DNA of 64,000 bases from Syntrophales bacterium (GCA_035366835.1 DAOSIS010000015.1:23949-87948), one strand, 5' to 3'. Shown: positions 12,426 through 49,167, counted from the first letter of the stretch. Made by a program: numbers and translations. The notes: generated from the sequence alone by a model not told the origin.

Positions 12426-12449
12426 GGAATTCTCCTTTGCATGGACTTC

Positions 12450-13190: not shown

Positions 13191-13897
13191 GGGGATCCTT
13201 TCCGGACCGGCCGCTCGCCGAAGATCGCCCGGCCGATCCGTACGATCGTGGAGCCTTCTTCGACGGCGACTTCGAAGTCCTGGGTCATGCCCATGGACAG
13301 CTCGCGCATCGAAACCCCGGCGATGCGCTCTTCCGCGATCCGGTCCCGGAGTTCGCGGAGCGACCGGAAAAAGGGGCGGGCCTCTTCGGGATCGTCGAAC
13401 CACGGCGGCATGGTCATGAGTCCGCGAACGGAAAGATTCGGCAGGGCCGCGGCGCTCCGCACGAGTTCCATGGCGCGCGCCGGGGGAATGCCGCTCTTCG
13501 TGTCCTCGCCCCCCGTATTGACCTCCACGAGGACGGGTGTGACCGTTCCGGCAAGGGCGGAACGCCGGCTCAGTTCCTGCGCCAGTTCCATCCGGTCGAC
13601 GGAGTGGATCAGGTCGAAGAGCCGGACGGCGTACTTGGCCTTGTTCGTCTGGAGGTGGCCGATCATGTGCCATTCTACGGTCTTCCCGAGTTTCTCGATC
13701 TTCCGCTTCCCCTCCTGGACGTAGTTTTCGCCGATGATGTCCACGCCGGCGGCGATCGCCTCCGCCACCCGTTCGTCGTCCACCGTCTTGGTCACGGCCA
13801 TCAGGCGCACGTCGGAGGGGCGACGCCCCCCGCGCAGCGCCGCATCGGCCATGCGCTCGCGTATCCGCAGGATGTTGGAAAGGACCGCTGAGTCCAT
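13187..13897 (-). CDS. yggS: YggS-family pyridoxal phosphate homeostasis protein
   Basis: 236 aa. LMAVTKTV...IIGENYVQE...WHMIGHLQTNK are hallmark YggS motifs. Confidence 0.9.
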   Translation of the reverse strand: MDSAVLSNILRIRERMADAALRGGRRPSDVRLMAVTKTVDDERVAEAIAAGVDIIGENYVQEGKRKIEKLGKTVEWHMIGHLQTNKAKYAVRLFDLIHSVDRMELAQELSRRSALAGTVTPVLVEVNTGGEDTKSGIPPARAMELVRSAAALPNLSVRGLMTMPPWFDDPEEARPFFRSLRELRDRIAEERIAGVSMRELSMGMTQDFEVAVEEGSTIVRIGRAIFGERPVRKGSP

Positions 13898-16052: not shown

Positions 16053-16340
16053 GGGTCTTTTCCTTTCGCTGTCCGGATCGCGGGAACGGCGCCTGCGGCA
16101 CCCGTCCGCGGAGGGCCTGGAGGCCGCAGGTGCTTCCTTATACAACGATCCGCCTTGCTTTTGAAGGGCCGAATCGATATGTTGGCGCCAGCGCAGAAAG
16201 CGCATTGATGACACCTGTCCCGGGTCGCCGGGATATTTTTCGACCCTGCAAACTCTCGCCGCGGAGGCAAGAGGCCCCGAAAAATCTCCAAGGCGCCCCT
16301 GCGACGGACATCATCAACAGCGGAAGAAGAGGCTGATGAC

Positions 16341-26189: not shown

Positions 26190-28691
26190 TCAACGGTCGC
26201 CGACCGTGTCGCCTGAGTTGTAGTTGACCCGGCAATTGCCGTTCCCGCCGCTGATTTCAATGTCGGCGTTCATGGCGCCCGTGTAGTTGATGGTGCCCTG
26301 CGCAGCGCCGCAACTGCCGTTGTTCGTGTTGTACCTCGTCACCGTTTCACCCGAACTCAGCCGATAGGTGTCGGTCGTAATTTCACTGCCGTTGTTTACC
26401 CGCCGGCAGCCGGACCCGGTGACCCTGAAGTCGCGCCTGCTGCCGGTATTGTTCCATACCCTGTATTCGGAGCAGCCGGTATATACGGTAGCCGAGCAGG
26501 TGCTGCTGCCGTTGGCATTGCTGACCGTGAGGGTGTAGGTCCGATCGCCCGCCGTCGTCTGGCTTCCCGAAGTGCAGGTGCCGCCGCTCGAATTCGAGAA
26601 GTTCGCGCAGACGCCGCCGGGCGACGGGCTCCACGATCCGTTGGCGGGACCATTCGCGATGGTCCAGGTGAGACTCGTCGTGCCGCCGTAGGGCACGATA
26701 TTCGGGCTGACGGCGAGGGTGCAGGTCGGCTGGGCCGCCTGGGTCACCGTGAAGGTCTGCCCGGCGATGATCATCGTACCGGTGCGCGGGGCGCCGGTGT
26801 TGTTGGTGGAGACGCTATAGCCGACCGTTCCCGTCCCGGACCCGCTGCTGCCGGAGGTGATGGAGATCCAGGAGTTGTTACTCGCCGCGGTCCAGGTGCA
26901 GCCGGTCACGGAGGTCACGGTGACCGTTCCGGTTCCGGCGTACCGGCCGAAGGACTGGCTGTAGGAGCTCAGCGTATAGACGCAGCCGTCGGCCTGATTG
27001 ACCGTGAAGGTCTGCCCGACGATGTTGATGTAGCCGGTCCTTGCAGGGCCGGTATTGGCGGCGACGGCATAGCCGATCGTCCCGTTTCCAGCACCGACGC
27101 TGCCGGAAGTAACGGTGATCCAATCGGAGAGGCTCGACGTCATCCAGGGGCAGGACGTCGTCGTGGTGGTGAGGTTGACGCTGCCCGATCCTCCCGCGGC
27201 GGTGGCCGACGCAGCTTCGGGCGTGATGGAATACGTACAGTCCCCCTGCGGAAAGAAGACGCGGAAATTGGTGAGTTCGATCTGCTGGGTGCTCGATCCG
27301 GTCGCCTCCGTGAAGCCGAAGAAGATCTTGCTGAAGTCGTTGTGATCCGCTTCCGAGAGGGATACGGTCTTGTTGATCTGGGCGGTCGTATCGGTGTAGG
27401 GGACGATGACGTCCTGGAAGCGGCTCATGGCCAGAGGATCGGCGAAACTGTCCTTGCGCGAGATCCATGCTTTGATTTCATAAGGGTAAGGCCCCGAGAG
27501 CGAACCGGGGCGGACGATCTCGATCCTGCAGACGTAAGGGCGTCGGCTTTCCATCCAGTTGCAAGAGCCGGAGGTCATGCAGGGTTCCGTCTGGCTCGCG
27601 GGCTGATAGTAGCCGCTGTCGCCCGTCCCCGCCGAATTCTGGGGATTCCCCCCGGAACCGCCCGCGCCGTGCTTGTTGTCGTCGTAGCTGTTCGGGGATC
27701 CTGTGCAGCCGGTGCCGGATGCCGTCCTGGCGCCCCAGAACATGAGCGCCACGTGGTTGTAGAAGGTATAGGTCGGGTTCCACCATGGACCGCTCTGTGT
27801 CCGCGGATCGTTCCTGCTGTCCGATTGGCAGATGTTGCCGGTGCCGGGGTTGGGGAAGGTATCGAACTCCAGGGCTATTTTCGGGGGCTTCAGGCCGAGG
27901 CCGTCCGCCGTGTCCCCAGCGCCGGCGTAGCCGATGAGCTCGCCCTCTCCCACGGCCCCGCCGGTGCGGTCCCGCGTGTTGTTTCGGTCAGGATCCGTGG
28001 CGCTGAGGACGGCAAAGGTGAAGCCGTCGGCGTAGGCGGTGCTGTCGGAGGAACGGTCCTCGTTCAGGAAGGTGAATTCGAAGTAGGCCCGTATGCCGAG
28101 GCCGAAGTTGCATATGCCGTCGGTGCAGTAGCCGACGATGCTGCTCCCCTGGTACCAGAGGGAACCGTAGCTGTCCTCGACGCCGCCGCCCATCGTGATC
28201 GTGTTCGTGTCCGGATCGGCCTGGACGGCGCTGCCGCCCGATTCCCCCGAGGCGATGGGCTCGCTGAAACTGGGGAATTCCGTGTCGGACTCGATGACCG
28301 GCGACGTCGGCGGGGGCGGTTCCGATGTGCCCGTCCCCGAACCCCACGTCACGGCGAGGTCATAGACGATCACCCGCCGCGCCTCCAGAAACGAACCGGC
28401 GTTGGCAACGCCCGTCGAGGTGATCCTGTAGTTCTCGATCTTGATCGTGAAGGCCGAATTGGCGTCGGGCATGTAGAACGTGGTTTCAGGATAATTCGCG
28501 AGCTGGATGGCCACGCCGTAGCGCACGCCCGCCCTGGCGAGATCGTAGGCGTTGTCGTTCCTGTTGGTCAGGAGCTCCCCGAAGGTCGACGACGCGGTGA
28601 TGCTGTAGATCCCCGCGCCGAGAACGCCCATGATCAGCATGGCGATGATGATCGTGATGAGGACGTCGCCTTTTCGTTTCCGCAAGCCCAT
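26190..28691 (-). CDS. pilus-associated adhesin: PilX-type N-terminal anchor, L-type (legume-like) lectin domain, tandem beta-repeats, Cys-rich C-terminus
   Basis: Internal Met (MGLRKRKGDVLITIIIAMLIMGVLGAGIYS) of ORF 26190..28832. Lectin motifs ADGFTFAVL, KIALEFDTFPN and FFGFTEATGSSTQQIELTNFRVFF. Two ~84-aa repeats with a C..W..W.(S/T).TSGS..G.GT.GY....N.G..RTG...I.GQTFTV.Q pattern. Confidence 0.8.
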   Translation of the reverse strand: MGLRKRKGDVLITIIIAMLIMGVLGAGIYSITASSTFGELLTNRNDNAYDLARAGVRYGVAIQLANYPETTFYMPDANSAFTIKIENYRITSTGVANAGSFLEARRVIVYDLAVTWGSGTGTSEPPPPTSPVIESDTEFPSFSEPIASGESGGSAVQADPDTNTITMGGGVEDSYGSLWYQGSSIVGYCTDGICNFGLGIRAYFEFTFLNEDRSSDSTAYADGFTFAVLSATDPDRNNTRDRTGGAVGEGELIGYAGAGDTADGLGLKPPKIALEFDTFPNPGTGNICQSDSRNDPRTQSGPWWNPTYTFYNHVALMFWGARTASGTGCTGSPNSYDDNKHGAGGSGGNPQNSAGTGDSGYYQPASQTEPCMTSGSCNWMESRRPYVCRIEIVRPGSLSGPYPYEIKAWISRKDSFADPLAMSRFQDVIVPYTDTTAQINKTVSLSEADHNDFSKIFFGFTEATGSSTQQIELTNFRVFFPQGDCTYSITPEAASATAAGGSGSVNLTTTTTSCPWMTSSLSDWITVTSGSVGAGNGTIGYAVAANTGPARTGYINIVGQTFTVNQADGCVYTLSSYSQSFGRYAGTGTVTVTSVTGCTWTAASNNSWISITSGSSGSGTGTVGYSVSTNNTGAPRTGTMIIAGQTFTVTQAAQPTCTLAVSPNIVPYGGTTSLTWTIANGPANGSWSPSPGGVCANFSNSSGGTCTSGSQTTAGDRTYTLTVSNANGSSTCSATVYTGCSEYRVWNNTGSRRDFRVTGSGCRRVNNGSEITTDTYRLSSGETVTRYNTNNGSCGAAQGTINYTGAMNADIEISGGNGNCRVNYNSGDTVGDR

Positions 28692-28701
28692 GGGTTCCCC
28701 G

Positions 28702-29205
28702 TTACCAGTACGACTCCAGGATGTTGACACGCTGGCTGAAGCTGGACGCGGAATTGTCCGCGCCGGTGACCGTAAGGGCGACATCGATCCGGCGGATGTT
28801 GGCCGCCGTTGCCGTCGCCGTCCCCGAACCATCGAAGTAGCTGAGGGTGAAGGCGGTGACGCGGTCGATCAGGGTCGTCCCGTTGATCTGCACCTTGTCG
28901 CCGGAAAGGGCGATGGCGACGGTGACGGGTCCCGTCCGCGTGCAGGTCACCGCGGAGGTTACCGACTGGGCCGGCGAGGGCGCGACGGCCGTCGCCGCGT
29001 GCAGTTCCTTCGCGATCCGCGTCAAGGCGACCTGGGCCTTCTGGAGCGTATCGGCGTTTTTCCGGGCAAAGACGTAGCCGCTCGCAATCTGCGTCAGGCC
29101 CATCCCCACGACGGCGACGAGAATGCCGATCAGCACGAGGCAAACGATCATCTCGACGAGCGTGAAGCCCTTATCGTCTGAGCGGGGTCCGTGCATCATG
29201 GCCAT
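28702..29205 (-). CDS. prepilin-type minor pilin/pseudopilin
   Basis: 167 aa. N-terminal methylation motif DKGFTLVEMIVCLVLIGIL. Confidence 0.8.
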   Translation of the reverse strand: MAMMHGPRSDDKGFTLVEMIVCLVLIGILVAVVGMGLTQIASGYVFARKNADTLQKAQVALTRIAKELHAATAVAPSPAQSVTSAVTCTRTGPVTVAIALSGDKVQINGTTLIDRVTAFTLSYFDGSGTATATAANIRRIDVALTVTGADNSASSFSQRVNILESYW

Positions 29206-29220
29206 CTAAACCCTCTCCCC

Positions 29221-29874
29221 TCACCGCAGGACGAACAAAGCCGTCCGCGTTTCGCCCGTCCGGTTCGACGCGTCCGACCGGTGGCCGACGACGACCTTCA
29301 GGTAGCGCCCGTAGGCCGGATCGCCCGTCGATCCATTGATGTTTTCTTCCCTGTTGCTTGCATCGAACTTGATGAACCGGTTCTGGAGAACGCGGTAGTT
29401 CCCGAAGGCGTTGCCGTAGTCCTGGTTCTCTCCGCCGCCGGGGGCGCCGATGGCGGTCTGCAGGTCCGTCAGCGTCGGTGCCGCGCCGTTGTTCTGCCAG
29501 GTGACGGTTCCGTCGCTGACCGTGGCCCCGGCGGTGATCGGCCACGCCGGTTCGTTCTCGCCGCTGGTTCCGCCGCCCGTGCAGCGGTAGTGGAATCCGT
29601 TTCGTATGCGGATCGAGGGAAGGATGAGCGTATCGGCGGCGTAGGACGTGCTCGGCCGCCAGTGCGGGATCCTGCTGTACAGCGTCGTCATGTTCTCCAG
29701 GACCTGGCTCAGGTTTGCCGATGCCTGGAGCCGGGCGATGGGGGTGGAACTCAGGGAGATGGACGATCCGAAATAAGGCGCCATCATGGCGGCGACGATG
29801 GCGAGCATGACGATGGCCACGAGGATTTCGACCAGCGTCAGTCCGGATTTCATGAGTCTATTCCGTGGCGTCAT
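29221..29874 (-). CDS. prepilin-type minor pilin/pseudopilin
   Basis: 217 aa. KSGLTLVEILVAIVMLAIV. Contains GENEPAWPITAGATVSDGTVTWQN. Confidence 0.8.
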   Translation of the reverse strand: MTPRNRLMKSGLTLVEILVAIVMLAIVAAMMAPYFGSSISLSSTPIARLQASANLSQVLENMTTLYSRIPHWRPSTSYAADTLILPSIRIRNGFHYRCTGGGTSGENEPAWPITAGATVSDGTVTWQNNGAAPTLTDLQTAIGAPGGGENQDYGNAFGNYRVLQNRFIKFDASNREENINGSTGDPAYGRYLKVVVGHRSDASNRTGETRTALFVLR

Positions 29875-30329
29875 GGCGTGATGAACCCCGTATTGGCGGC
29901 GAGGATGATCGTGGATGTGCCGCTGTCCCCGCTCAAGGTGATCGACACATCGGAAGGCCCCGGGCTGCCCCAGGAATCGAAGCTGACCGTCACGGGCGTG
30001 GTCACCGTCGTGCCGGACGGGAAGGACCGCGTGCTGGAATTTTCAGTGGGGAGGTTGATCGCGGCGGCCGCGCCGTTGCGCTGAAGGGTGTAGGACCCGC
30101 CGGCGAATGCGATTCCCCAGGTTGCCGTATCGTCGTTCAGGGCCTTCATCTGGGCAAATCTGAGATGCGTCTTGACGATATCGGTCTGCACGACAAGGTC
30201 CTGCTGCGTCGTCAGGACGCGGCTGACGGCAACGGCGGCGATTACGCCGATGACCAGCAGAACGACGATCACCTCGACGAGGGTGAAGCCCCGGTCAGCA
30301 GTGTCTGTTGAGGCGTGATGGTTCATCAC
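29871..30329 (-). CDS. prepilin-type minor pilin (GspH/FimU-like size)
   Basis: 152 aa. DRGFTLVEVIVVLLVIGVI. 4-nt overlap with the next gene. Confidence 0.8.
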   Translation of the reverse strand: MMNHHASTDTADRGFTLVEVIVVLLVIGVIAAVAVSRVLTTQQDLVVQTDIVKTHLRFAQMKALNDDTATWGIAFAGGSYTLQRNGAAAAINLPTENSSTRSFPSGTTVTTPVTVSFDSWGSPGPSDVSITLSGDSGTSTIILAANTGFITP

Positions 30330-30413: not shown

Positions 30414-30737
30414 TCATCCGATCGTGGCCCGGATCACGGCGAAGCCTTCCCGTTCCATCTGTGCGGCGACGCGGTCCTGCAACTCCCTTCCCGGTGTGAG
30501 CGCGACCATGTAGCCGCCCTTCCCGGCGTAGACCCCTTCCAGGACTTCCGGATAGGGTTTTTCCAGAGACACAGGTGGCGAACCTCGCGGCCGTCGCGTT
30601 CGAAGGCCCTGGTGAGGATGGCGGCGGACCTGAGGCCGTCCGGGTCGTTGTGATGAAAGAGGGTGCGCCGTCCGGTCGGGCCATGCCCGCATCTCGCCGA
30701 TCGCCTTTCCCATCGCATGAACGAGATCATCGATCAT
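30414..30737 (-). pseudogene. small DHH-like ORF with an apparent compensating double frameshift
   Basis: The N-terminus (MIDDLVHAMGKAIGEMRAW) and C-terminus (VSLEKPYPEVLEGVYAGKGGYMVALTPGRELQDRVAAQMEREGFAVIRATIG) share a frame. The protein-like middle (RRTLFHHNDPDGLRSAAILTRAFERDGREVRHL) is in another frame. ATGA overlap with the GDPD stop. Confidence 0.3.
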
Positions 30738-31504
30738 CCCCGAGCTCCCTGTGCGATTCGCGGATCGTCCGAGATCACGCCGTCCACCTCTGCCGCCAGG
30801 GCGCAGCGGAATTCGTCGGCCCTGTCGACGCGATAGGGGAAGACGGCGATGCCCGCTTCGTGCATGCGGGCGACGTGTTCCTTTTGGAGAAAGAGCCAGT
30901 TCGGATGTACGGAAAAGATTCCGAGGGACCGGCAGCGCCCCGGGAGGCCTTCTTCGCCGGGGTTCTTCGTGATGAAGGCAAGAGAAACGTCGCTGCGATC
31001 GCGTCGGATGCTTTCGAGGACGCGCCATTCGAAACTGGAGATCAGCACGGAATCCAGCAATCGGCGTTCTTCGACAAGGGCGACGAGCTGGCGCTCCACC
31101 GCATCGGCCGGGCCGTCCGCCTCTAAGGCTTCCTTCTTGATCTCGAAGTTGATCAGGACCCTGCCGCCGAACAGGTCGAGGACCTCCTCCGGCGTCGGGA
31201 CCGGCTCGCCGGTGAAGCGGACGTCGAACCAGCGGCCGGCGTCCAGCTTCTTGATCTCCTCCAGGGTTCGGCCGTTCACCCGTCCCGTTCCGTCGGTCGT
31301 GCGCTCCAGGCCCGGATCGTGAATTACGATCAGCCTGCGGTCTAGGGTCAACTGGATGTCCATTTCGAGCATGTCCACGTCCGCCTCAAAGGCCGCCCGG
31401 AACGCGGCGAAGGTGTTTTCCGGGCAGCGGACCCGGTCTCCCCGGTGGGCGACAATCCACGGCTTCCTGATGCGGAGTCGATCCTGGAGCGAAGGTGTCG
31501 GCAT
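30734..31504 (-). CDS. glycerophosphodiester phosphodiesterase (cytoplasmic UgpQ type)
   Basis: 256 aa. WIVAHRGDRVRCPENTFAAF...EMDIQLTLDRRLIVIHD. No signal peptide. Confidence 0.9.
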   Translation of the reverse strand: MPTPSLQDRLRIRKPWIVAHRGDRVRCPENTFAAFRAAFEADVDMLEMDIQLTLDRRLIVIHDPGLERTTDGTGRVNGRTLEEIKKLDAGRWFDVRFTGEPVPTPEEVLDLFGGRVLINFEIKKEALEADGPADAVERQLVALVEERRLLDSVLISSFEWRVLESIRRDRSDVSLAFITKNPGEEGLPGRCRSLGIFSVHPNWLFLQKEHVARMHEAGIAVFPYRVDRADEFRCALAAEVDGVISDDPRIAQGARG

Positions 31505-31959: not shown

Positions 31960-32120
31960 TCAATCCGTCATCTACAAAAAATGTAGGTAAATGACAAAAA
32001 TTAGTAGAATTCGTTTTCCAAGGAGTACGGTCGAGTTGAGGATCGGAGGGTATTCAAGACAAAAAACGTTGTAAATCAACATGTTAATCATTATATTTTG
32101 GCATTTGCTTTCCAGGATAC

Positions 32121-32136
32121 TGGCATGTTATGTGCT
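32121..32136 (+). promoter_or_regulatory. candidate sigma54 (-24/-12) promoter for the pilin genes
   Basis: TGGCATGTTATGTGCT has GG-N10-GC spacing and is close to TGGCAC-N5-TTGC. It lies in an AT-rich region about 83 nt upstream of ATG 32219. Confidence 0.55.
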
Positions 32137-32218
32137 AAAGCCAAATTCTGAAAATGGAGGAGTAGTCCATTATCGACCATCCTGCTCCGTCAGGAAAAAA
32201 CTCTGAGGAGGAAATTGT

Positions 32219-32617
32219 ATGAGAACAAATCAGAAAGGCTTTACATTGATCGAGATCATCGCCGTCTTGATCATTCTTGGCATTCTGGCCGCAGTAGCCG
32301 TGCCGAGATTCATGGATCTGACGGCAGACGCCAGGAGGCAGGCCGCAAACGCAGCGGTTGCCGAAGGGATCGCGAGGGCAAATATGCTAATAGCTAGGAA
32401 CATTTTGTCAAGCGGTGGAACGATACCTACTGCGGCATGCGTAGTTGAGGGCCTGAACGCGAGTTATCAGAATGCGGGTGATTTCTCAATCTCCTATGCA
32501 GGTGCGGGCGGCGGTGGAACTGCGGGAACCATCACGGTTTCCGGATGGGGCGTCTCCGGCAACGTAAGTGGCGGGGATACCGTTGAAAAAGCGTTTGACA
32601 TGCCGACCTCCAATTAA
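32219..32617 (+). CDS. type IV pilin / pseudopilin (prepilin N-terminal methylation domain)
   Basis: 132 aa. MRTNQKGFTLIEIIAVLIILGILAAVAVPRF. SD GAGGAGG upstream. Confidence 0.85.
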   Translation: MRTNQKGFTLIEIIAVLIILGILAAVAVPRFMDLTADARRQAANAAVAEGIARANMLIARNILSSGGTIPTAACVVEGLNASYQNAGDFSISYAGAGGGGTAGTITVSGWGVSGNVSGGDTVEKAFDMPTSN

Positions 32618-32658
32618 TTTAATCTACACGCGTCCACCCATCTGAGGGGGGTGGTGAA

Positions 32659-33063
32659 ATGGCGTTTCGAACGAGGAGGGCGTCCCCTGGCCCGAGAGGC
32701 GAGGGTGGGTTTACATTAATTGAGATTATAAGCGTCCTCGTCATAATTGGAGTTCTTGCGGCTATCGCAGTTCCAAGATACATGGACCTCATCGACTACG
32801 CGAGGAACAGGGCCGCCTACGCGGCGCTTGCCGAGGGTATGGCCCGTGTGAACATGATCGCCGCCAAGCGGATTCTTCAAACCGGGAGCATTCCGAGCGC
32901 GGCGAGCGTTGTCGCCGATTCGGCATTGAACACGGATGCAGGAGATTTTTCCCTTAGTTTCGCAGCAAACGGCGAAGGCAGCGTCAATATCACTGCTTCC
33001 GGCACGGCGGGAAACGTGGACGGCGGAAGCGTGACAGGCAATGTCGGATTGCCCGTGTTGTAG
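32659..33063 (+). CDS. second type IV pilin paralogue
   Basis: 134 aa. GEGGFTLIEIISVLVIIGVLAAIAVPRY. Collinear with the first pilin (GDFS.S.A..G.G). Unusually long leader peptide if the start is correct. Confidence 0.8.
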   Translation: MAFRTRRASPGPRGEGGFTLIEIISVLVIIGVLAAIAVPRYMDLIDYARNRAAYAALAEGMARVNMIAAKRILQTGSIPSAASVVADSALNTDAGDFSLSFAANGEGSVNITASGTAGNVDGGSVTGNVGLPVL

Positions 33064-33100
33064 TGTTAACGGGAAACGGACAGATCGTGGTTTAGAACCA

Positions 33101-33146
33101 AGACAGGACATCGCCACCGATTAATAATTGTGGCGATGTCCTGTCT
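33101..33146. terminator. 17-bp perfect inverted repeat between convergent pilin and TPR genes
   Basis: AGACAGGACATCGCCAC - 12 nt - GTGGCGATGTCCTGTCT. The loop holds the stop codon of the minus-strand gene and the right arm encodes its last residues. Confidence 0.55.
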
Positions 33147-35115
33147 TCTTATGATGGATCCCTCTTTTTTTTTGTTCTGTATTGCGTCCTGCAGCCACTA
33201 ACGAGACGGTCTGACGGAGATTTTCACGTGCTTTTTCATAGCCGGGGTTGAGCATCAGCGCTGCCGAGAAGTAATACGCCGCTTTTTCCCAATCGGCGGT
33301 CTTTTGCATGGCGATGCCTGCATTGTTGTATGCCGCTACGAAATCCGGCTGCAACGCAATTGCGGCGACGAGGAATTGGATGGCATCCCGAGGGCGGTCC
33401 AAAAGGTTCAGGACTCTGCCGATATTGTTGTTGGTGTCCGCCCTCTTGGGCGACAGTACCAATGCCCGATGGAAATGGGCCAGAGCACGGTTGAGGAGGC
33501 CGACTCCCGCGTAGGCAACCCCTAAAATATTATGTTTCCACGAATTGTCGTCTGTCAACATTTCCGCGGCTGAATAGGCAGCGATCGCCCGTTTCGTTTC
33601 TCCCATTTTCACCAGGAGGTCTCCCTTTCCGATATAGGCATAGGAGTTTTTCCTGTCACGGAGAAGCGCATCGTTGAAATGGACCAGCACTTCTTCCAGC
33701 GGTGCGCCCTTTTTTTCAAGGAGATTTGCCAGGCTGGCATGCACGGAGGAGTAACCCGGCCAGATGGCGAGGGACTTGAGGATTTCCCTTTCCGCTGCTG
33801 CAAGATTCCCTTCCACCAGTAGAACATCGCCCAAAATCCGATGGGCGAGCCAGTTCTTTGCGGTGACCTCCGTCGCATGCTGAAAGAGGGTCTTGGTGTT
33901 CCTCCAATATTCCACTTGCCGCCAGGTGACCACGGACAGGATGATGAGAATTGACGCCGTCACAGCGGTCGCGAGCATCCATTGACGGGGGGCATCACTG
34001 AAGGCCGAGACACTCCAGACAATTGCAATGAAGACGCCGATAGAAGGCAGATACATGTATCGATCCGCCATGGACTGTAACCCTACCTGAACAATACCGA
34101 TTACGGGCAGCAGTGTGATCAGAAACCACAGCCAGCCGAACAGCACATAGGGGTGACGGCGGACGAGCAGGAAGGCGGCAAGCGAAACAAGGAGTAGGAA
34201 AACGCCTGCGCCGATAACACGCGGCGACAGAAGGGGGAAAGAAACATAAGGATAGAAAATGGCCAGACTGTCCGGCCAGAAAGTCTTTTCCATGTATCCC
34301 TGGTAGGATACCGCGGCATTCAAAATCCTCGCAGACAGCGGAATTCCGCTCAGGGTTGCCATCGCCCCGGCCTTTGCCTGGACGATCATCGTCACGATGC
34401 CTGAAAATAGGGAAAGGGAAAAAAACGGTATTTTTTCCATGACGACGGAGCGGTGCAATCTCAAATTCTGGAAACGCATCCAATCGGAGTATTGGTCTGG
34501 CGCCTCGATGCGCTTCAGAGGCCAGAAATCGAGGAGGAGAAAGACGATCGGCAGCGTGACGAGCATCGGTTTGGACAGGAGACCGAGGGCGAAGAGGAAA
34601 AGCGTTGCGGTGTAGCGAAGGGGGTGAGGTTTCCTTGCATAGCGTACATAGGAAAGGAGCGCCAGGATGCCGAAGAATCCCGATAGAACATCCTTCCTTT
34701 CCGAAATCCACGCCACCGACTCCACGTGGAGCGGATGGATACCGAAGAGCGCCGCGACCACGGCGCTTTCCCATCGCCTTCCCGTGGTTTCCAACAGCAA
34801 AAGAAACAGCAGCAGAGTATTGGCGATGTGAAAAAAGAGACTTGTCAGGTGATGTCCCACCGGATGCACGCCGTACATCTGGCAATCGAACATATGGGAA
34901 ATCATCGTAAGGGGATGCCAGTTGGCGGCAGCTTGGGTGGTGAACGCCCGGATCAGGCCTTCTTTCGTCAACCCCGCCTGAACGTGGTCATTCTGCGTGA
35001 CATATAACTGGTCGTCGTATCCGACGAAGTCGTTCTTGACCACGCCGCCGAAGGCGGTCAGGACCAGAAGGATCAGAACAAGACCGATCCAGCGGTCCTT
35101 CATGGAGATCGTCAT
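33121..35115 (-). CDS. TMTC/PMT_2-like polytopic membrane glycosyltransferase (GT-C type) with C-terminal TPR repeats
   Basis: Internal Met (MTISMKDRWIGLV...) of ORF 33121..35373. NDFVGYDDQLYVTQNDHV and FGIHPLHVESVAWISERKDVLSG resemble the TMTC/DUF1736 signature. The C-terminal half is TPR-like. Confidence 0.65.
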   Translation of the reverse strand: MTISMKDRWIGLVLILLVLTAFGGVVKNDFVGYDDQLYVTQNDHVQAGLTKEGLIRAFTTQAAANWHPLTMISHMFDCQMYGVHPVGHHLTSLFFHIANTLLLFLLLLETTGRRWESAVVAALFGIHPLHVESVAWISERKDVLSGFFGILALLSYVRYARKPHPLRYTATLFLFALGLLSKPMLVTLPIVFLLLDFWPLKRIEAPDQYSDWMRFQNLRLHRSVVMEKIPFFSLSLFSGIVTMIVQAKAGAMATLSGIPLSARILNAAVSYQGYMEKTFWPDSLAIFYPYVSFPLLSPRVIGAGVFLLLVSLAAFLLVRRHPYVLFGWLWFLITLLPVIGIVQVGLQSMADRYMYLPSIGVFIAIVWSVSAFSDAPRQWMLATAVTASILIILSVVTWRQVEYWRNTKTLFQHATEVTAKNWLAHRILGDVLLVEGNLAAAEREILKSLAIWPGYSSVHASLANLLEKKGAPLEEVLVHFNDALLRDRKNSYAYIGKGDLLVKMGETKRAIAAYSAAEMLTDDNSWKHNILGVAYAGVGLLNRALAHFHRALVLSPKRADTNNNIGRVLNLLDRPRDAIQFLVAAIALQPDFVAAYNNAGIAMQKTADWEKAAYYFSAALMLNPGYEKARENLRQTVSLVAAGRNTEQKKRGIHHKKTGHRHNY

Positions 35116-35366
35116 AAGGGGAGTCTCCCTGGCGGTTGCCGGAGACTTTATAGCGTACTCCTGCCGATTCCGCAAAATATTTGCGGAGCCCCAGGTAAGA
35201 GTTATCGTTGTTGATGGTTGCTCATCTGCCGTCGTCTGCCCTGACATTGCGTCCTGCCTTTCCTGAGAAGCAGCGCATGATTTTTCTTTTCTGAAATGTG
35301 CGGCGTTCACGGACAGGGCGCGAAAAAATAGTTTACGCGGGCACCCCTCAGCGGCTAATAAGGAGC

Positions 35367-37289
35367 ATGGCATTGAAAGAGCAAACCATCTCGCCGATCC
35401 TGATCGCGGCGGCGCTTATCGGGAGCCTTTTTTTCCAGGGACGAAATCTTTATGTCTTTCTTGCGGTGCAGGCGGCCCTGGTCTGCGCCTTGACGTATCG
35501 ACTGATGAGGGCACAGGCGGAAACCGTCCTCCTCAAGATCGATTTCATGTCCGGGGCCGTTCTTCTCTTCTGGGTATGGCTTGCCGTCAGCGCTTTTCTC
35601 TCCCGCGTTCCCTACGTCAGTGGGTTCATCTTCTGGTGGATCGGGGTCCTGCCGATGGTCTATCTGATCCATGTCCTGTCGCCGGAGACCGAAGATTCCG
35701 GGTCGGCGACTGTGATGGTTCTGCTCGCCGTTGGATCGGGGCTGGCTGCATGGGCTCTGTGCCAATTTATTGTCTGGCAGGATCCTCCGCGGGGACCTTT
35801 TATCTATCGTAATCTGCTGGCGGCGTTTCTCGGCATGCTGGCATTGATCGTGTCTGCCCGTTTCCTCATGAGAGACGAGAACGGGGGAACCCGTGAATTC
35901 TGGTTCCTGGCCGGGATCTTTCTGATGGTCCTGATCGTGGGTTTGATCCAGAGTCGCGGAGTCCTGCTCTGTTTTTCCATCGGTGCCTTCGCCCTCCTCT
36001 CTTTCTCTCGTCCGTTCGTGAAGAAAAGAAAGGATATCCTGACGATCATCGCAGTCTATGCGGTCGCCCTGGCCCTGGCCCAGGTCTCCTCGTCGGGGGA
36101 GATGGGTGCGAGAATGGCTACTCTCCAGGATCCCTATCAGGCTGGGGGAACCCGCTTCGTCATCTGGGAGGGGTCGTGGGAATTGTGGCAGCAGTCCCCT
36201 TGGTACGGCAACGGCATCGGGACGTACTGGCTGGCCTATCCGGCCTATCGGCAGGCGGACGATACCAACGCGGGCTTCTACGTCCACAACGACTACCTGC
36301 AGATTCTGATCGAAAGCGGCTGGCCGGCCCTGCTCCTGCTTTGCTGCATTTTGCTTGCGATCCTTTTTCTGTTCGTCAAGACATACAGGAGCGAATCGAC
36401 CGGCCCTTCTGCAAAAATCGAAGCTGCGGGCCTGTTTGCCGCGCTGCTGTCGATTTTTCTGCACAGCTTGCTCGATTTCAATCTCTATACGGTGCCGACC
36501 ATGATCCTGGCGGGGCTGGCCATGGGACGCCTCCGCTCGCTCTGTCATGACCCGCTTCCGTCCGTATCCATGAAAATTTCTTTAGGCCGCTGGCTCCGGC
36601 CGACTGTTTTTCGCTGCTGCCTGCTGTTTTTGGGACTCCTTCCGGGGATCTATTTCGTCACGGTTGGCGTTTCCTACTATTACCTCCAACGTGGCGAGGC
36701 GTTGATCGAGAAGGCTCAATTGAAAGAGGCCCTTGGGTCGCTGCGGATTTCCGAAGCCCTGTGGTCGAACCAGGACCGGCCGAAATATCTGCAGGCCAAC
36801 ATCTATCAGTTGACGCTGCAGGAAAATCCGCAAATGGATCTCGCGGTGCGTAGACAAGTATATGACGATGCACAGATGAAGTTGCAGCAGGCCGAAAGTT
36901 TGAATCCCTGGCGGCCGGAGATTCATGCCGTCCGCGGTCAACTGTACCGACAGAACCGCGACCTCGCCGGCCCGGACTGGTATGAAAAGGCCGTGCGGTC
37001 CTTTCGTCACGCGCTGGCTATCGACCCGCGATGCTACGATGCGCGGGTCTTCTACGCAAGGATGCTCTTGGAGACGGGCGATGCTCCAAAGGCCGCCGAT
37101 GTCTTGAAAGCGGGATTGAAATACTGGCATACGCCGGATGCCCGGATGATTTCCTATTATCGACTGACAGCGTTCGTTTGTCGGCAACAGGGAGATCATG
37201 CCTCGGCCACGGAAGCGGAAAAGAAGATGGCGGCCGTTATCGCGGCCTACCAAAGAGCCGCGCGGGAGAAATGGGAAAGGCCCTTTTGA
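35367..37289 (+). CDS. O-antigen ligase (Wzy_C) domain membrane protein with C-terminal TPR repeats
   Basis: Internal Met (MALKEQTISP..., SD AAGGAG) of ORF 35298..37289. NAGFYVHNDYLQILIESGWPALLLL is the Wzy_C/WaaL/PglL-type loop motif. TPR-like tail. Confidence 0.75.
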   Translation: MALKEQTISPILIAAALIGSLFFQGRNLYVFLAVQAALVCALTYRLMRAQAETVLLKIDFMSGAVLLFWVWLAVSAFLSRVPYVSGFIFWWIGVLPMVYLIHVLSPETEDSGSATVMVLLAVGSGLAAWALCQFIVWQDPPRGPFIYRNLLAAFLGMLALIVSARFLMRDENGGTREFWFLAGIFLMVLIVGLIQSRGVLLCFSIGAFALLSFSRPFVKKRKDILTIIAVYAVALALAQVSSSGEMGARMATLQDPYQAGGTRFVIWEGSWELWQQSPWYGNGIGTYWLAYPAYRQADDTNAGFYVHNDYLQILIESGWPALLLLCCILLAILFLFVKTYRSESTGPSAKIEAAGLFAALLSIFLHSLLDFNLYTVPTMILAGLAMGRLRSLCHDPLPSVSMKISLGRWLRPTVFRCCLLFLGLLPGIYFVTVGVSYYYLQRGEALIEKAQLKEALGSLRISEALWSNQDRPKYLQANIYQLTLQENPQMDLAVRRQVYDDAQMKLQQAESLNPWRPEIHAVRGQLYRQNRDLAGPDWYEKAVRSFRHALAIDPRCYDARVFYARMLLETGDAPKAADVLKAGLKYWHTPDARMISYYRLTAFVCRQQGDHASATEAEKKMAAVIAAYQRAAREKWERPF

Positions 37290-37342
37290 AGGCAGGTACT
37301 CGGCCTGAGTTCTTTCAATCGCCTTGACAATGCGGGAGCGGC

Positions 37343-38914
37343 TTGTTACGACTCGATGCAAGATATTTCGCGGGGTCTCCGTTCGTGCATCTCAAGACCG
37401 AGGTGATCATCATAGGCGGCGGTTCCACCGGGACGGGCATCGCCCGGGACCTCGCGCTGCGGGAGATTCCTTCCATCCTCCTGGAAAAGGGGGACTTCAC
37501 CAGCGGCGCCTCGGGAAGGAATCACGGCCTCCTCCACAGCGGCGCGCGCTATGTCGTCTCCGACCGGGAAGCCGCGCGGGAATGCATCACGGAAAACCGG
37601 ATCCTCAAGGCCATCGCCCCCCATTGCATCGAAGCGACGGGGGGCTTTTTCGTCTCCCTGCCGGAAGACAGCCTTTACTGGCGGGACCAGTTCATCCGCT
37701 CCTGCATGGACGTGGGCATCGAGGCGGAGCCGCTGCAGAGGGACGATGTCCTGCAGAGGGACCCGGCGATCAATCCCGACCTCGTCGCGGCGGTGCGCGT
37801 GCCGGACGGGGCGGTCGACCCCTTTCTCCTGGTGATCGAAAACGCCCGCGACGCCGAGAGGAACGGCGCCAAGTGCCTGACGCACGTCGAGGTCACGGAA
37901 CTGCTCGCTGCAGGGGGGCGTATCCGCGGGGTGATGGCGAGGGATACCATCACCGGAGAGCCCCACGACATCGAAGCGCCCTTCGTCGTGAATGCGACGG
38001 GCGCCTGGGCGGACCACATCCTCAAACTGGCGGGCCTGCACCTGGGGCTCATCCTTTCGAAGGGAAGCATGCTCATCACGAATCGCCGCCTCTGCCGGCA
38101 CGTCATCAACCGCTGCCGGCCGCCGGGCGACGGTGACATCATCGTTCCCAACGAGACGGTCTCCATCCTGGGGACCACGTCCGTGACCATCGACGACATC
38201 GGCAGAATCGAAGTCACGCCTCCGGAGGTCTCCCGGCTCATCGAGGCGGCCTCCCATCTGATTCCCGCCGTGAAGACGACGCGCTTCATCCGGGCCTACG
38301 CGGGGGTGAGGCCGCTCTTCCAGTTCGCGGATGCCGCCGACGGCCGCGCCGTCAGCCGCGAGTTTGTCCTGGTGGATCACGGGGCCCGCGACGGCCTGTC
38401 GGGATTGATCACCATTACCGGCGGAAAGCTCATCACGTACCGGCTCATGGCGGAAAAGGTCTGCGATCTCCTCTGCGGGAAGATGGGCGTCCGCGTCGAC
38501 TGCAAGACGGCCGTCACGCCGCTGCCCGGTGCGGAAAGGCCCTTCGACCTCAGCGGACGGCTGAAGGAATTCGGGGACGTTCCTCTCCAGGGCCGCGGCG
38601 AGACGCTCTGCGACTGCGAACTGATCGGCAGGGGCGAAATCGAGGGGATCCTCCGGCAGGGCCGCCTGCGGAACCTCCAGGACATCCTGCACCGCACCCG
38701 GCTGGCCAAGGGGACCTGCCAGGGTGCCTTCTGCGTGTACCGGCTGCTGGGCGTCCTGCAGGAGCAAGGGCTCACCGGGGGCGGCGAGCCCCACGAGATC
38801 CTCAAGGGGTTTCTGGAAGAACGCTGGAAAGGCGTCCGGCCCATTCTGGGGGGGCTGTCGCTGAGAGAAGAAGAACTCATCGAATCCATTTATCGGGGTC
38901 TCTTCAACCTGTAG
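37343..38914 (+). CDS. glpA: anaerobic glycerol-3-phosphate dehydrogenase subunit A
   Basis: 523 aa. EVIIIGGGSTGTGIARDLALR...SGASGRNHGLLHSGARYVV. The start is uncertain: TTG 37343 or GTG 37385. Confidence 0.9.
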   Translation: MLRLDARYFAGSPFVHLKTEVIIIGGGSTGTGIARDLALREIPSILLEKGDFTSGASGRNHGLLHSGARYVVSDREAARECITENRILKAIAPHCIEATGGFFVSLPEDSLYWRDQFIRSCMDVGIEAEPLQRDDVLQRDPAINPDLVAAVRVPDGAVDPFLLVIENARDAERNGAKCLTHVEVTELLAAGGRIRGVMARDTITGEPHDIEAPFVVNATGAWADHILKLAGLHLGLILSKGSMLITNRRLCRHVINRCRPPGDGDIIVPNETVSILGTTSVTIDDIGRIEVTPPEVSRLIEAASHLIPAVKTTRFIRAYAGVRPLFQFADAADGRAVSREFVLVDHGARDGLSGLITITGGKLITYRLMAEKVCDLLCGKMGVRVDCKTAVTPLPGAERPFDLSGRLKEFGDVPLQGRGETLCDCELIGRGEIEGILRQGRLRNLQDILHRTRLAKGTCQGAFCVYRLLGVLQEQGLTGGGEPHEILKGFLEERWKGVRPILGGLSLREEELIESIYRGLFNL

Positions 38915-38971
38915 GATGGATTTCGAAGAAACGGCCTTCTGCAACGGCTCGTTCGACAGGCTGCTGAATCT

Positions 38972-40195
38972 ATGCGCTACGATCTCATCGTCATCGGCAT
39001 GGGGCTTTCGGGCCTGATGTCCGCGAAAACGGCGGTCGACGCCGGGGCGAAGGTCCTCGTCGTCGGCAAAGGCACGGGCGGGTTGTGCCTCTTCACCTCG
39101 GGCATCGACGTCATGGGGGCCCTCCCCGCGGGCGCGGCGATGGGGGAGGCGCTGCCGCGCTGGATCGAACGGCATCCCGATCATCCCTATGCCAAGATGG
39201 GCTGGGAGGGCGTGCGCGAGGCGCTCGAAGCCTTTGCCGAGCTTTTCCCGCCGCCCTACGGCTTCGCGCCGGAAGGCGAGGGGAACTGCCTTCTTCCGAC
39301 CGGCGCAGGGACGACAAGGCCGACCTACCTCGTGCCGGCCACGATGCGCAGTGCCTGCCGCCTGGAGAAGGAACGGACGCTCCTCGTCGGATTCCAGGGC
39401 TTCCGCGACTTCTACGCGGAGTATGCTGCGGCCGGGCTGAAGTGCCGGGGGGAGAATCTGGCGATTCCGGAGATCGCGGGCCGGAACAACTCGGCGACTT
39501 CCCTGGCGCGACTCCTGGAGGACTTGCCGTTCCGGGAGCAGGTGGCCGCGGAAATCGTCCGCCGGCTTCGGGGGGAGACCCATGTCGGTTTCCCCGCCCT
39601 GCTGGGATTCCGCAATCCCATGGAGATCCTGAAGGACCTGGAGGACCGGACGGGGACCGCGATCTTCGAAATCCCCATTCTTCCGCCTTCCGTTCCCGGG
39701 ATGCGCATCTTCCGCCGTTTCCGGCAGCATCTGATCGCGCGGGGCGCGACTTTTCTCCTCGGCAGTCCCGTCAGCCGGATCCTGCGGAACGGACCGTCCT
39801 GCACGGCCGTCGAGATCCTCCATCCTCCCGTGACGCAGGTCTATGAAGCCGATCGATTCGTCCTCGCGACCGGGCGCTTCATGGGGGGCGGGCTCTGCGC
39901 CGACGAGGAGACGATGCGTGAGCCGCTGCTGGGCCTTCCGCTTTCGGCCTCCCTGCCCCGGGAGCATTGGTTCGAGCGTTCGTTCCTGGAAGGCCGCGAA
40001 CATGCCATTCACGGCGTCGGAGTCGTGACGGACGGGGATTTGCGGCCCCTGGACGGGGCGGGGCGTCCTTACGCTGCGAACCTCTGGATCGCGGGCACCC
40101 TCCTTGCCCATCAGCGCTGGATCGATGAGAAATCCCGCGAAGGCATCGAGATCGCCACGGGATACCGGGCGGCGCGAAAGGCCCTGGCGTCATGA
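38972..40195 (+). CDS. glpB: anaerobic glycerol-3-phosphate dehydrogenase subunit B
   Basis: 407 aa. MRYDLIVIGMGLSGLMSA. Position between glpA and glpC. Confidence 0.85.
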   Translation: MRYDLIVIGMGLSGLMSAKTAVDAGAKVLVVGKGTGGLCLFTSGIDVMGALPAGAAMGEALPRWIERHPDHPYAKMGWEGVREALEAFAELFPPPYGFAPEGEGNCLLPTGAGTTRPTYLVPATMRSACRLEKERTLLVGFQGFRDFYAEYAAAGLKCRGENLAIPEIAGRNNSATSLARLLEDLPFREQVAAEIVRRLRGETHVGFPALLGFRNPMEILKDLEDRTGTAIFEIPILPPSVPGMRIFRRFRQHLIARGATFLLGSPVSRILRNGPSCTAVEILHPPVTQVYEADRFVLATGRFMGGGLCADEETMREPLLGLPLSASLPREHWFERSFLEGREHAIHGVGVVTDGDLRPLDGAGRPYAANLWIAGTLLAHQRWIDEKSREGIEIATGYRAARKALAS

Positions 40196-41406
40196 ACAGA
40201 GAAGAGTCGAAGATCGTCAATCCCGACGTCTGCATCCGGTGCGCAACCTGCATGGGGATCTGTCCCGTCGCCCGTGTGACGGCGTCCTTCCCGGGTCCGA
40301 AGCAGGCGGGGCCCGGGGCGGAGCGGTTCCGCAAGCCCGGCGATCCCTCCGTAGACGAGTGGATTCATCTGTGCATCGGCTGCCGCCTGTGCGACACGGT
40401 CTGCTCCTCCTGCGTCAACGTTTCCGAGATGAATCTCCTGGCGAAGGCGAAGTACCGGGACGAGCACGGCATGCCCCTGCGGGACTGGATGTTTGCCCAC
40501 AACTCCTTCGTTGAAAAGCTGGCCGGCCGCGTCCCCCGCCTCTCCAATGCGGTCTTGCGGAATCCGCTCGTCCGCCGTCTCCTGGACAGGCTTCTGAAGA
40601 TCGATCTCCGCAGGCCCCTGCCCGTCTATGAAGCAACGACGTTCCGGCAGTGGTTCCGGACGCACACCGGGCGCGGCGGAAAGCCGATCGGCTACTTTTA
40701 CGGCTGCTACGCCAACACCCACGAAAGGGATGTCGCCATTGCCGCCGTCCAGGTTCTGGAGGCGGCCGGCTACGAGGTCGTCATACCCCGGCAGGAATGC
40801 TGCGGCCTTCCGGCATTGGGGCAGGGAGACGTCGGGGAAGCGCGGCGGATGGCGGAAAGGAACGTCCCCTGGCTGCTGGCGGCCGTGCGCTCCGGCCTGG
40901 AGATCGTCTTCACGTCGACCAGCTGCGGCCACATGCTCAAATACGAGTACAGCCGTTTTCTGGAAATTCCCGATGCGGACGAGGTGGCGCGCCATCTTCA
41001 CGAACTGTTCGATTATCTGCGCGACCTCCAGGGAAAGGGACAGTTCGACGTCCGCTTCCGTTCCCGGCCGCTCCGGGCCGCGTACTTTGCCCCCTGCCAC
41101 CTGCGGTCGTTGCAGATCGGCTTCCCGTCCCTCGATATCCTGCGGCGGATTCCCGAACTGCAGATCGAGATGGTGGACGCCGATTGCTGCGGCATGGGCG
41201 GCCTCTACGGATTCAAGAAGGAAAAAGCCCCGATCGCGGACGCGATCGGGGCCGACCTGACGAAGGCGGTGGAGCGCCTGAACGTGGAGATGGTGCTGAC
41301 GGAATGCGAAGGGTGCCGCATGCAGATCCAGCGCCTGACGGGCCTCAGGACCCTGCATCCGATCCAGATCGTCCGGGACGCGTTGGAGCCGGGGGCCGGC
41401 AACTGA
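40192..41406 (+). CDS. glpC: anaerobic glycerol-3-phosphate dehydrogenase subunit C (2x4Fe-4S plus CCG domains)
   Basis: 404 aa. CIRCATCMGICP and CIGCRLCDTVC ferredoxin motifs. CCG motifs (QECCGLP, ADCCGMGG). Confidence 0.9.
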   Translation: MNREESKIVNPDVCIRCATCMGICPVARVTASFPGPKQAGPGAERFRKPGDPSVDEWIHLCIGCRLCDTVCSSCVNVSEMNLLAKAKYRDEHGMPLRDWMFAHNSFVEKLAGRVPRLSNAVLRNPLVRRLLDRLLKIDLRRPLPVYEATTFRQWFRTHTGRGGKPIGYFYGCYANTHERDVAIAAVQVLEAAGYEVVIPRQECCGLPALGQGDVGEARRMAERNVPWLLAAVRSGLEIVFTSTSCGHMLKYEYSRFLEIPDADEVARHLHELFDYLRDLQGKGQFDVRFRSRPLRAAYFAPCHLRSLQIGFPSLDILRRIPELQIEMVDADCCGMGGLYGFKKEKAPIADAIGADLTKAVERLNVEMVLTECEGCRMQIQRLTGLRTLHPIQIVRDALEPGAGN

Positions 41407-49149: not shown

Positions 49150-49167
49150 TTTTTCCGGGAGGTCACC

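Follow-up and report, generated by a model that had tools for sequence, protein, structure and literature searches.

Two types of pilin-modifying enzyme are the closest described relatives, in kind, of the locus considered here. The first is represented by TfpW, a GT-C enzyme and proven pilin glycosyltransferase that transfers D-arabinofuranose and is encoded beside pilA in Pseudomonas aeruginosa strains that belong to group IV. It is made up of 646 residues with 11 predicted transmembrane (TM) helices. Loop 1 carries a DDx motif that is essential, and the protein further has a Y-x6-P-F-x7-P motif and, in the periplasm, a tetratricopeptide repeat (TPR) domain. The second comprises the pilin O-oligosaccharyltransferases PglL, PglS, TfpO (PilO) and TfpM, classes of 420-600 residues for which a TPR domain is unreported; members of the TfpO/TfpM class have 420-470 residues and no large C-terminal domain, and their cognate pilin ends in Ser/Thr (PMC9829042). 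Here we describe a four-gene module within 64,000 nucleotides of DNA from Syntrophales bacterium (GCA_035366835.1 DAOSIS010000015.1:23949-87948), referred to as the window, in which two small pilin genes are accompanied by genes for two large membrane proteins with C-terminal TPR domains. One, GT-C-TPR, resembles TfpW, and the other, Wzy_C-TPR, belongs to the superfamily of the O-antigen ligases. We consider it reasonably probable, judging from gene content and sequence, that the module serves as a pilin-accessory cassette, with glycosylation of both pilins in the periplasm by one or both of the TPR-fused enzymes. Such a cassette would be of a kind already known, because both types of enzyme have counterparts that are proven to modify pilins. 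Its parts are as follows, in coordinates of the window.

31960 to 32218, plus strand: AT-rich upstream and promoter region of the pilin operon, directly ahead of pilin 1 (GC content 0.378).
32121 to 32136, plus strand: consensus match to a sigma-54 type -24/-12 promoter, TGGCATGTTATGTGCT.
32219 to 32617, plus strand: pilin 1, a 132-residue prepilin (PF07963, E=6.4e-9; TIGR02532).
32659 to 33063, plus strand: pilin 2, a 134-residue prepilin (PF07963, E=1.4e-6; TIGR02532).
33100 to 33147, no strand: perfect 18-bp inverted repeat, likely a two-way terminator (repeat search, fold energy and RNA ends).
33121 to 35115, minus strand: 664-residue GT-C-like membrane protein with C-terminal TPR domain (TPR matches; PMT_2 through homologues).
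35116 to 35366, no strand: intergenic region from which the two enzyme genes diverge (read from the sequence; GC content 0.53).
35367 to 37289, plus strand: 638- or 640-residue Wzy_C (O-antigen-ligase superfamily) membrane protein with C-terminal TPR domain (PF04932).

The initial annotation of this DNA had proposed two paralogous short pilins and a divergent 640-residue protein combining Wzy_C with TPRs, and both proposals are borne out. The two pilins match PF07963 (N_methyl) and TIGR02532 above the cut-offs, which places their N termini, with the G|F-T-L-x-E cleavage and methylation motif ahead of a hydrophobic helix of some 20 residues, among those of the type IV pilins, and they share 54% identity over 113 aligned positions. 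Each has a type IV (class III) signal, cleaved between ...KG and FTLIEIIAVLIILGILAAVAVP in pilin 1, where the leader is MRTNQKG and the mature N terminus FTLIEII, and between ...GG and FTLIEIISVLVIIGVLAAIAVP in pilin 2, where the leader is 17 residues long. Neither protein matches PF00114, the globular domain of T4a major pilins, in a Pfam scan. Pilin 1 has one cysteine and pilin 2 none, so that a disulfide loop is lacking in both. Their C-terminal halves, LSSGGTIPTAACVV...PTSN in pilin 1 and LQTGSIPSAASVV...LPVL in pilin 2, are about 23% Ser/Thr and also Gly-rich. The pair belongs to a conserved, separate family of small pilins of about 120 residues that are always paired in related loci.

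The gene for Wzy_C-TPR ends at 37289 and starts either at 35367 (ATG, 640 residues) or at 35373 (TTG, 638 residues), the shorter form having the better Shine-Dalgarno spacing and the agreement of other gene callers. Its product matches PF04932 (Wzy_C) with 69.9 bits against a cut-off of 31.7 over residues 206-348, includes the loop motif HNDYLQILIESG and has TPR matches as well. An AlphaFold2 model (predicted local distance difference test score, pLDDT, 90) has a WaaL-like fold: the best Foldseek match in the PDB is the O-antigen ligase WaaL (7tpg_B; E=3.9e-5, target-normalised TM-score 0.59, 436 aligned columns, 15% identity). R195, R261, H305, D307, Q310, E314 and H364 are invariant in 32 relatives. 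The first three are spaced by 66 and 44 residues, and the corresponding essential residues of WaaL (R215/R288/H338) and PglL (R224/R298/H349) by 73-74 and 50-51, so that the Arg/Arg/His set conserved in the Wzy_C superfamily appears to be kept, as matched by spacing and motif rather than by superposition of residues. Hydropathy, the positive-inside rule and the modelled helices predict 13 TM helices. WaaL has 12, with a cytoplasmic C terminus and no TPR, whereas the extra predicted helix of the window protein would put its TPR domain in the periplasm.

With TfpO/PilO, TfpM, PglL and PglS this protein shares a Wzy_C domain with the Arg/Arg/His set, a predicted inner-membrane location with a periplasmic active loop and a gene often located right after that of a pilin. 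It departs from them in size and architecture, proteins of this type having 638-680 residues with a C-terminal TPR domain of about 190. The TfpO/TfpM class is a poor fit on each of its defining features: the window protein has 638/640 residues with the TPR domain included, and the pilins end in ...PTSN and ...LPVL. Proteins of the same architecture are numerous. A word-indexed search returned about 35 full-length matches. When the search was made exhaustive, clusters at 50% identity contributed at least 150 representatives that matched from end to end, TPR domain included, most of them being 620-680 residues long. A large and uniform Wzy_C family with a fused TPR domain, predicted to be periplasmic, appears to be new in that we found no description of it in the literature, nor any paper describing a Wzy_C protein with TPRs in a pilin locus.

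A link between this family and pili lies in its gene neighbourhoods, for which 79 genome loci were collected, mostly from Sulfurifustis, Sulfuricaulis, Acidiferrobacterales, Thiohalophilus and other Gammaproteobacteria. Of 62 usable loci, 16 have a pilin open reading frame that shares the strand of the Wzy_C-TPR gene and ends within 400 bp upstream of it, where we estimate that about 0.1 such cases would be expected by chance. A gene for a pilin, pilB or pilC is found no more than 4 kb away in 34 of the 60 genome loci that are 8 kb or longer, and in the clade of the window the Wzy_C-TPR gene is within 2.3 kb of the pilins. The linkage of the family to pili is thus strong and general, and includes unrelated Gammaproteobacteria. 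The upstream pilins of the Gammaproteobacteria mostly end in ...GC or ...CK; since these are Cys or Cys-Lys rather than Ser/Thr, the enzymes, if they act on pilins, would have to use internal sites, as PglL and PglS do, instead of the C terminus, the site of TfpO and TfpM. One locus of the Acidiferrobacterales (L008, 9290-13999) has two Wzy_C-TPR genes in tandem (E=3e-234 and 5e-247) right after a pilin gene, and a further pilin gene lies downstream of them.

GT-C-TPR is encoded on the minus strand from MTISMKDRW and ends 58 bp from pilin 2. Pfam finds only TPR matches in the full-length protein, and single-sequence searches of the PDB likewise return TPR matches only. Among its homologues, PMT_2 (PF13231) matches 23 of 40 that were aligned, with a best E value of 1.1e-8, and a paralogue that is 49% identical over the membrane domain (L004:6330-7859) scores 35.7 bits for PMT_2 against a cut-off of 26.1. 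The acidic motif expected of GT-C enzymes is present: D33-D34, in the loop-1 sequence GYDDQ, are invariant in the 40 homologues and in distant pilin-linked relatives. Also invariant among the homologues are NWHP, H126, E131, R139, R262, Y273, P280 and an ADRY motif, and of these H126, R139, R262, Y273 and P280 are kept, with the two aspartates, in the distant pilin-linked relatives as well. The AlphaFold2 model has a pLDDT of 88, and its helices, together with hydropathy and the positive-inside rule, predict 11 TM helices, an N terminus inside and a periplasmic TPR domain.

By description only, the likeness to TfpW is close, extending to size, the 11 TM helices, the N terminus inside, the DD of loop 1, the periplasmic TPR domain and the pilin-adjacent gene. 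A Y-x6-P-x7-P motif of the window protein also corresponds to the TfpW-like Tyr/Pro-rich motif in a late periplasmic loop. No protein named TfpW, and none from Pseudomonas, was among the 120 best matches listed in a search from the pilin-adjacent relative in Sulfurifustis. Three further differences can be noted. Unlike the gene for TfpW, that of the window protein converges on the pilin genes instead of lying downstream of them, genes for the synthesis of D-arabinofuranose are not nearby in the window, and the cognate pilins are small, paired and devoid of a disulfide loop. The eukaryotic O-mannosyltransferases TMTC1-4/PMT offer a second comparison. These are GT-C enzymes, and TMTC has luminal TPRs; the layout in common is a polytopic domain of GT-C type and, after it, TPRs that face away from the cytoplasm, as predicted for the window protein. 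JGI names some GT-C-TPR homologues 'protein O-mannosyl-transferase'.

Pilin-linked members of the GT-C-TPR family occur in unlike contexts, namely the clade of the window and the related loci L004, L084/85, L086, L091, L104, L137 and L031. The breadth of the link was gauged in a set of 80 metagenome loci of the family (44-51% identity), 50 of them with enough flanking sequence. The linkage of this family to pilins is recurrent but confined to a minority of its members. Apparent Wzy_C matches in the same metagenome loci were discarded, since they proved to be hits to nothing but the TPRs of the GT-C genes.

Together the four genes make up a conserved unit. The same four are found in L001, L002 and L087, with GT-C-TPR and Wzy_C-TPR proteins 62-81% identical to those of the window, and glpABC adjoins the unit in L001 and L087; L002 is a short contig without flanks. 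More distantly, L084/85 and L086 encode a Wzy_C-TPR protein about 50% identical to that of the window alongside the same pilin family, one or two GT-C-type genes and a GT2 gene, all inside a full pilus cluster. Besides a PilQ-type secretin and a T2SSF protein, this cluster encodes two ATPases, one of the AAA type and one that is PilB-like and has the MshE cyclic di-GMP domain, as well as a sigma-54 activator and minor pilins. L004 has a GT-C-TPR protein at 52% identity with two pilins, two GT-C-TPR genes, a GT2 gene and pilus genes; Wzy_C is absent from it. In Sulfurifustis (L031) the order is a PF00114 pilin, two homologous TPR membrane proteins and a Wzy_C-TPR protein, and the two TPR membrane proteins are related to the GT-C-TPR of the window with a profile E value of 2e-16 and 26% identity over the aligned catalytic segments. 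This is the only one of the 79 genome loci with a Wzy_C-TPR match in which both enzyme types occur together, and the regular pairing of the two at one pilin locus in the present lineage is new.

The GT2 genes of the related loci have their best matches, below family thresholds, in polyprenyl-phosphate sugar synthases, namely PpgS, AglJ, a dolichyl-phosphate hexose transferase and ArnC. Such synthases are the expected donor-making partners of GT-C enzymes. In placing a GT2 gene beside GT-C-TPR, these loci resemble the three-component, Gtr-like systems for periplasmic glycosylation, which consist of a GT2, a flippase and a GT-C (PMC11127046), whereas the module in the window has neither a GT2 nor a small flippase gene. 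At two of the related loci (L086, 10019-14011; L003, 1308-4580) the glycosylation genes are adjoined by a PMT_2 protein without TPRs, an MFS transporter and a protein resembling spermine synthase, the last in L003 a 566-residue form.

Transcription appears to set the pilins apart from the two enzymes. The sequence TGGCAT-N5-GTGCT at 32121-32136 is the sole match to the consensus TGGCAY-N5-KTGCW in the 64 kb, 0.09 being expected by chance; it lies 83 bp ahead of the ATG of pilin 1 and some 30-40 nucleotides ahead of the 5' ends of RNA contigs at 32167 and 32174. A sigma-54 activator is encoded within the clusters of related loci (L004, L084/85 and L086). RNA assembled from four digester metatranscriptomes extends over 32167-33100 with a word depth of 14-21, and one contig (32233-33097) spans both pilin genes, which appear to be co-transcribed as one transcript. 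The RNA contigs end at 33081-33102, at a hairpin formed by the 18-bp inverted repeat (I5), which is 100% complementary and has a fold energy of -38.9 kcal/mol (z=-5.1). Placed between the convergent genes for pilin 2 and GT-C-TPR, this hairpin is likely to be a two-way terminator. On the gene for GT-C-TPR there are weak contigs, restricted to its 3' part, and on that for Wzy_C-TPR there are none in the same four metatranscriptomes, zero depth being no proof of silence. With the caution that contig depth is a poor measure of expression, both enzyme genes appear to be expressed far below the pilins. This layout of pilins, terminator and weakly expressed accessory genes is like that of the pilin-accessory cassettes of P. 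aeruginosa, which combine strong pilin expression and a terminator after the pilin gene with low-level expression of the accessory genes (PMC11841053). The organism is present in activated-sludge as well as anaerobic-digester samples.

A contig from a hydrocarbon metagenome (run X12, depth about 294) matches the window only at 32234-32301, the conserved stretch encoding the pilin N terminus, and continues to its left and right into sequence that is unrelated. Another abundant organism in that sample probably has a pilin with the same N terminus.

Several points weigh against assigning the two enzymes to pilin glycosylation, support for which comes from gene context and not from chemistry. For Wzy_C-TPR, sequence alone cannot separate an oligosaccharyltransferase from an O-antigen ligase or polymerase. 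PglL_A (PF15864), the motif of PglL-type general O-oligosaccharyltransferases, has no match in the protein at E ≤ 0.01, and 26 of the 60 loci have no pilus gene within 4 kb. For GT-C-TPR, the 417-residue membrane domain has no Pfam match even at E ≤ 10, PMT_2 and DUF1736 (PF08409) being absent, and its sequence profile finds no match at E ≤ 10 among PDB sequences. In a fold search with the full model all 50 matches listed are TPR proteins, and because these filled the list the search did not bring out a GT-C fold. A saturated search puts the size of the GT-C-TPR family above 8000 members. Of the 50 metagenome loci that are 6 kb or longer, only about 6 have this pilin family close by, and 22 have tandem GT-C-TPR paralogues. 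A dedicated pilin-linked subfamily was considered and rejected, the pilin-linked members being scattered in a rough neighbour-joining tree of 115 domains. Finally, genes for donor synthesis (GT2, initiating transferase or flippase) are missing from the module, and the sole sugar-nucleotide gene found in the window encodes a ManC-type nucleotidyltransferase at 14982-16214, 17 kb away.

The claims of the initial annotation concerning the enzymes are accordingly upheld in part. The convergent 664-residue protein, which it had called TMTC/PMT_2-like, has the TPRs and the quoted motif FGIHPLHVESVAWISERKDVLSG and lacks a direct match to PMT_2 or DUF1736; because the membrane domain has no Pfam match, the label is owed to homologues only. 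In this the protein is also unlike TMTC/PMT enzymes, as its membrane profile matches no solved PMT. Dedicated modification of the pilins by two flanking enzymes, likewise proposed, draws on the conservation of the unit, on the pilus linkage of Wzy_C-TPR and on the TfpW-like architecture of GT-C-TPR, and is weaker in the PMT_2 label of GT-C-TPR, in the link of that protein to pilins and in the lack of sugar-donor genes in the module.

How these observations are to be read depends on which substrate is assumed. That both enzymes serve envelope glycans is the alternative that survives best, and we regard it as unlikely. Wzy_C-TPR would then be an O-antigen or exopolysaccharide ligase or polymerase, GT-C-TPR would decorate a glycan or lipid in the manner of ArnT or a Gtr-type GT-C, and their place beside the pilins would be owed to surface structures being regulated together or to a gene order that was inherited. 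Wzy_C is indeed a domain of ligases, polymerases and oligosaccharyltransferases alike, the best structural match is a ligase, and the missing PglL_A motif, the 26 loci away from pilus genes and the absence of pilins from most GT-C-TPR loci would all be expected. Yet Wzy_C-TPR genes follow a pilin gene or lie beside pilB or pilC far more often than chance allows, and do so in distant lineages; no lipopolysaccharide or exopolysaccharide cluster adjoins the module in the window, L001, L087, L084 or L086; and TPRs located in the periplasm are better suited to an acceptor that is a protein than to lipid A-core.

Ranking after it, and likewise improbable in our judgement, is a division of roles in which only Wzy_C-TPR is dedicated to pilins, GT-C-TPR being a broad periplasmic protein O-glycosyltransferase of the TMTC/PMT kind, or an enzyme with a non-pilin substrate, placed here by lineage-specific gene order. 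The very large size of the GT-C-TPR family, its many paralogues and the failure of its pilin-linked members to form one clade agree with such a division, as do the closest outgroup locus (L003), which shows no pilin within 8 kb, and the joint occurrence of both enzyme types in only one of the 79 genome loci. It accounts less well for the recurrence of the pilin linkage of GT-C-TPR in unlike contexts and for an architecture equal to that of the pilin-specific TfpW. It is highly improbable that both TPR membrane proteins are non-catalytic factors for pilus assembly or stability, like PilF, PilW or MshN, since the labels 'PilF' or 'TadD' that JGI gives to homologues and the NCBIfam matches to PilW and Tgl come from the TPR part only and lie far below cut-offs, whereas both proteins have invariant catalytic-type residues in large polytopic domains and Wzy_C is above the Pfam threshold.

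Returning to a cassette for pilin glycosylation, we infer enzyme activity, the pilins as substrate, the sites, the glycans and a benefit from what can be observed directly, which is the gene content, the conservation of the unit, its linkage to pili, the transcription of the pilins, the conserved catalytic-type residues and the WaaL-like model. The sigma-54-type promoter match would drive a two-pilin transcript ending at the hairpin, with the enzymes made at a lower level. Both enzymes would reside in the inner membrane, their catalytic loops and C-terminal TPR domains predicted to be periplasmic, and would act there on pilin subunits ahead of pilus assembly. Wzy_C-TPR, in the manner of PglL, PglS and TfpO, would transfer a ready-made oligosaccharide linked to undecaprenyl pyrophosphate to Ser/Thr of the pilin through its Arg/Arg/His site. 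GT-C-TPR, in the manner of TfpW and PMT, would use the DD of loop 1 to transfer single sugars from a polyprenyl-monophosphate sugar, its targets being Ser/Thr in the Gly/Ser/Thr-rich C-terminal half of the pilins. The TPR domains may recognise the protein substrate. Because the module in the window has no GT2 or small flippase gene, the sugar donors would be made elsewhere in the genome. A likely benefit would be an altered pilus surface, for example for escape from pilus-specific phages, as in P. aeruginosa.

The module differs in composition from the rest of the window, the mean GC content of which is about 64%. In 1-kb steps, GC content drops from 0.61-0.65 to 0.52-0.575 over 32-37 kb. At third codon positions (GC3), the values of the four genes are 0.571, 0.637, 0.654 and 0.702, compared with 0.819±0.048 for 42 other genes of the window (z from -5.1 to -2.4), and the 259 bases ahead of pilin 1 (31960-32218) have only 37.8% GC. 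Bases 31960-37300 are therefore compositionally distinct, and the initial annotation was right both about an AT-richer block with these limits and about a very AT-rich region ahead of the pilins. Its further proposal, horizontal acquisition, agrees with the deviant composition and not with the lack of mobility marks or with the presence of the module in relatives. No tRNA gene and no meaningful flanking repeats were found in the window, and no integrase, transposase or other mobility gene is among the annotated neighbours. Of 23 contigs with an identical GDPD protein, all six distinct contexts shown have the module where the short contigs reach, and no empty site was found among these contexts or in the relatives L001, L002 and L087. 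A 6.9-kb 'skip' in DNA contigs of four metagenomes was set aside as untrustworthy, resting on a 23-letter anchor with fragmented and noisy pieces.

In L001 and L087 the module is equally low in GC content, at 0.47-0.55 against 0.59-0.66 for its flanks. In the window it lies between a GDPD gene and glpABC, and in L087 and L001 between glpABC and the genes of a sugar-type ABC transporter, consisting of SBP_bac_1, two permeases and a MalK-like ATPase (L087, 1-4180; L001, 13593-14909). Such flanks would fit an old insertion into a locus for glycerol-phosphate utilisation. The GC content of the module resembles that of organisms of the L084/L086 type (0.45-0.55), where the module is part of a whole pilus cluster. 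Any transfer must be old, because an equally low-GC module is present in relatives in the same glpABC context. In our reading the module is old and was probably transferred at some time in the past, and a recent island is not supported.

On the upstream side of the module, on the minus strand and of normal composition, lie a gene for a UgpQ-like GDPD phosphodiesterase (30734-31504) and then a further pilus-related operon.

26190 to 30329, minus strand: neighbouring operon with three minor-pilin-like genes and a gene for an 833- or 880-residue BACON-domain protein (PF07963, PF13004).

The three minor-pilin-like genes, at 29871-30329, 29221-29874 and 28702-29205, match PF07963, and the last protein of the operon has two BACON domains and Ser/Thr/Gly-rich repeats. 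With GC3 values of 0.82-0.85 the operon is native, unlike the adjoining low-GC pilin block, and its arrangement recurs in those of the organism's contigs that are long enough to include it. The same pilus may receive minor pilins and a tip protein from this operon, and the BACON protein could be an adhesin of the pilus tip. Genes for pilus assembly (secretin, PilB-type ATPase or platform protein) were not found in the 64 kb; elsewhere, in L084/85, L086 and L004, this pilin family lies inside clusters that encode the assembly machine. Downstream of the block are glpA, glpB and glpC (37343-41406). The other window genes that were scanned are housekeeping genes, except for an open reading frame of 699 residues (11625-13724, plus strand). 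Its GC3, 0.65, is lower than that of any other gene outside the module, and Pfam gives it no match at E ≤ 1e-5. At 47704-51018 on the plus strand, a gene for a Slam-like outer-membrane protein (SlipAM and TPR_Slam) is followed by one for a 616-residue FecR-domain protein, and the two may form a pair for the export of surface lipoproteins.

Beyond the cassette itself, a wider proposal can be made, which we put forward tentatively, as possible more than probable. Wzy_C-TPR may be a fifth class of pilin-directed O-oligosaccharyltransferase, after PglL, PglS, TfpO and TfpM, in which the fused periplasmic TPR domain selects internal sites of the pilin, and which would occur widely, both among sulfur-oxidising Gammaproteobacteria and within this sludge lineage. 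Paired with a TfpW-like enzyme in the lineage of the window, it would give one pilus two chemically different O-glycosylations, possibly one for each pilin paralogue.

Glycosylation of pilins alters the surface chemistry of the pilus and, in P. aeruginosa, blocks pilus-specific phages. O-oligosaccharyltransferases are, moreover, the working enzymes of bioconjugate vaccine production, and each new class has widened the range of usable glycans and acceptor sites. The Wzy_C-TPR family provides a concrete candidate for a new class of such enzymes, as well as an opening for studies of how acceptors are chosen by a protein-binding domain. A single pilin locus with both enzyme types would allow a direct test of two glycosylation routes on one filament. 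Anaerobic digesters commonly contain the organism and show high transcription of its pilins, so that the answer could already lie in public metaproteomes.

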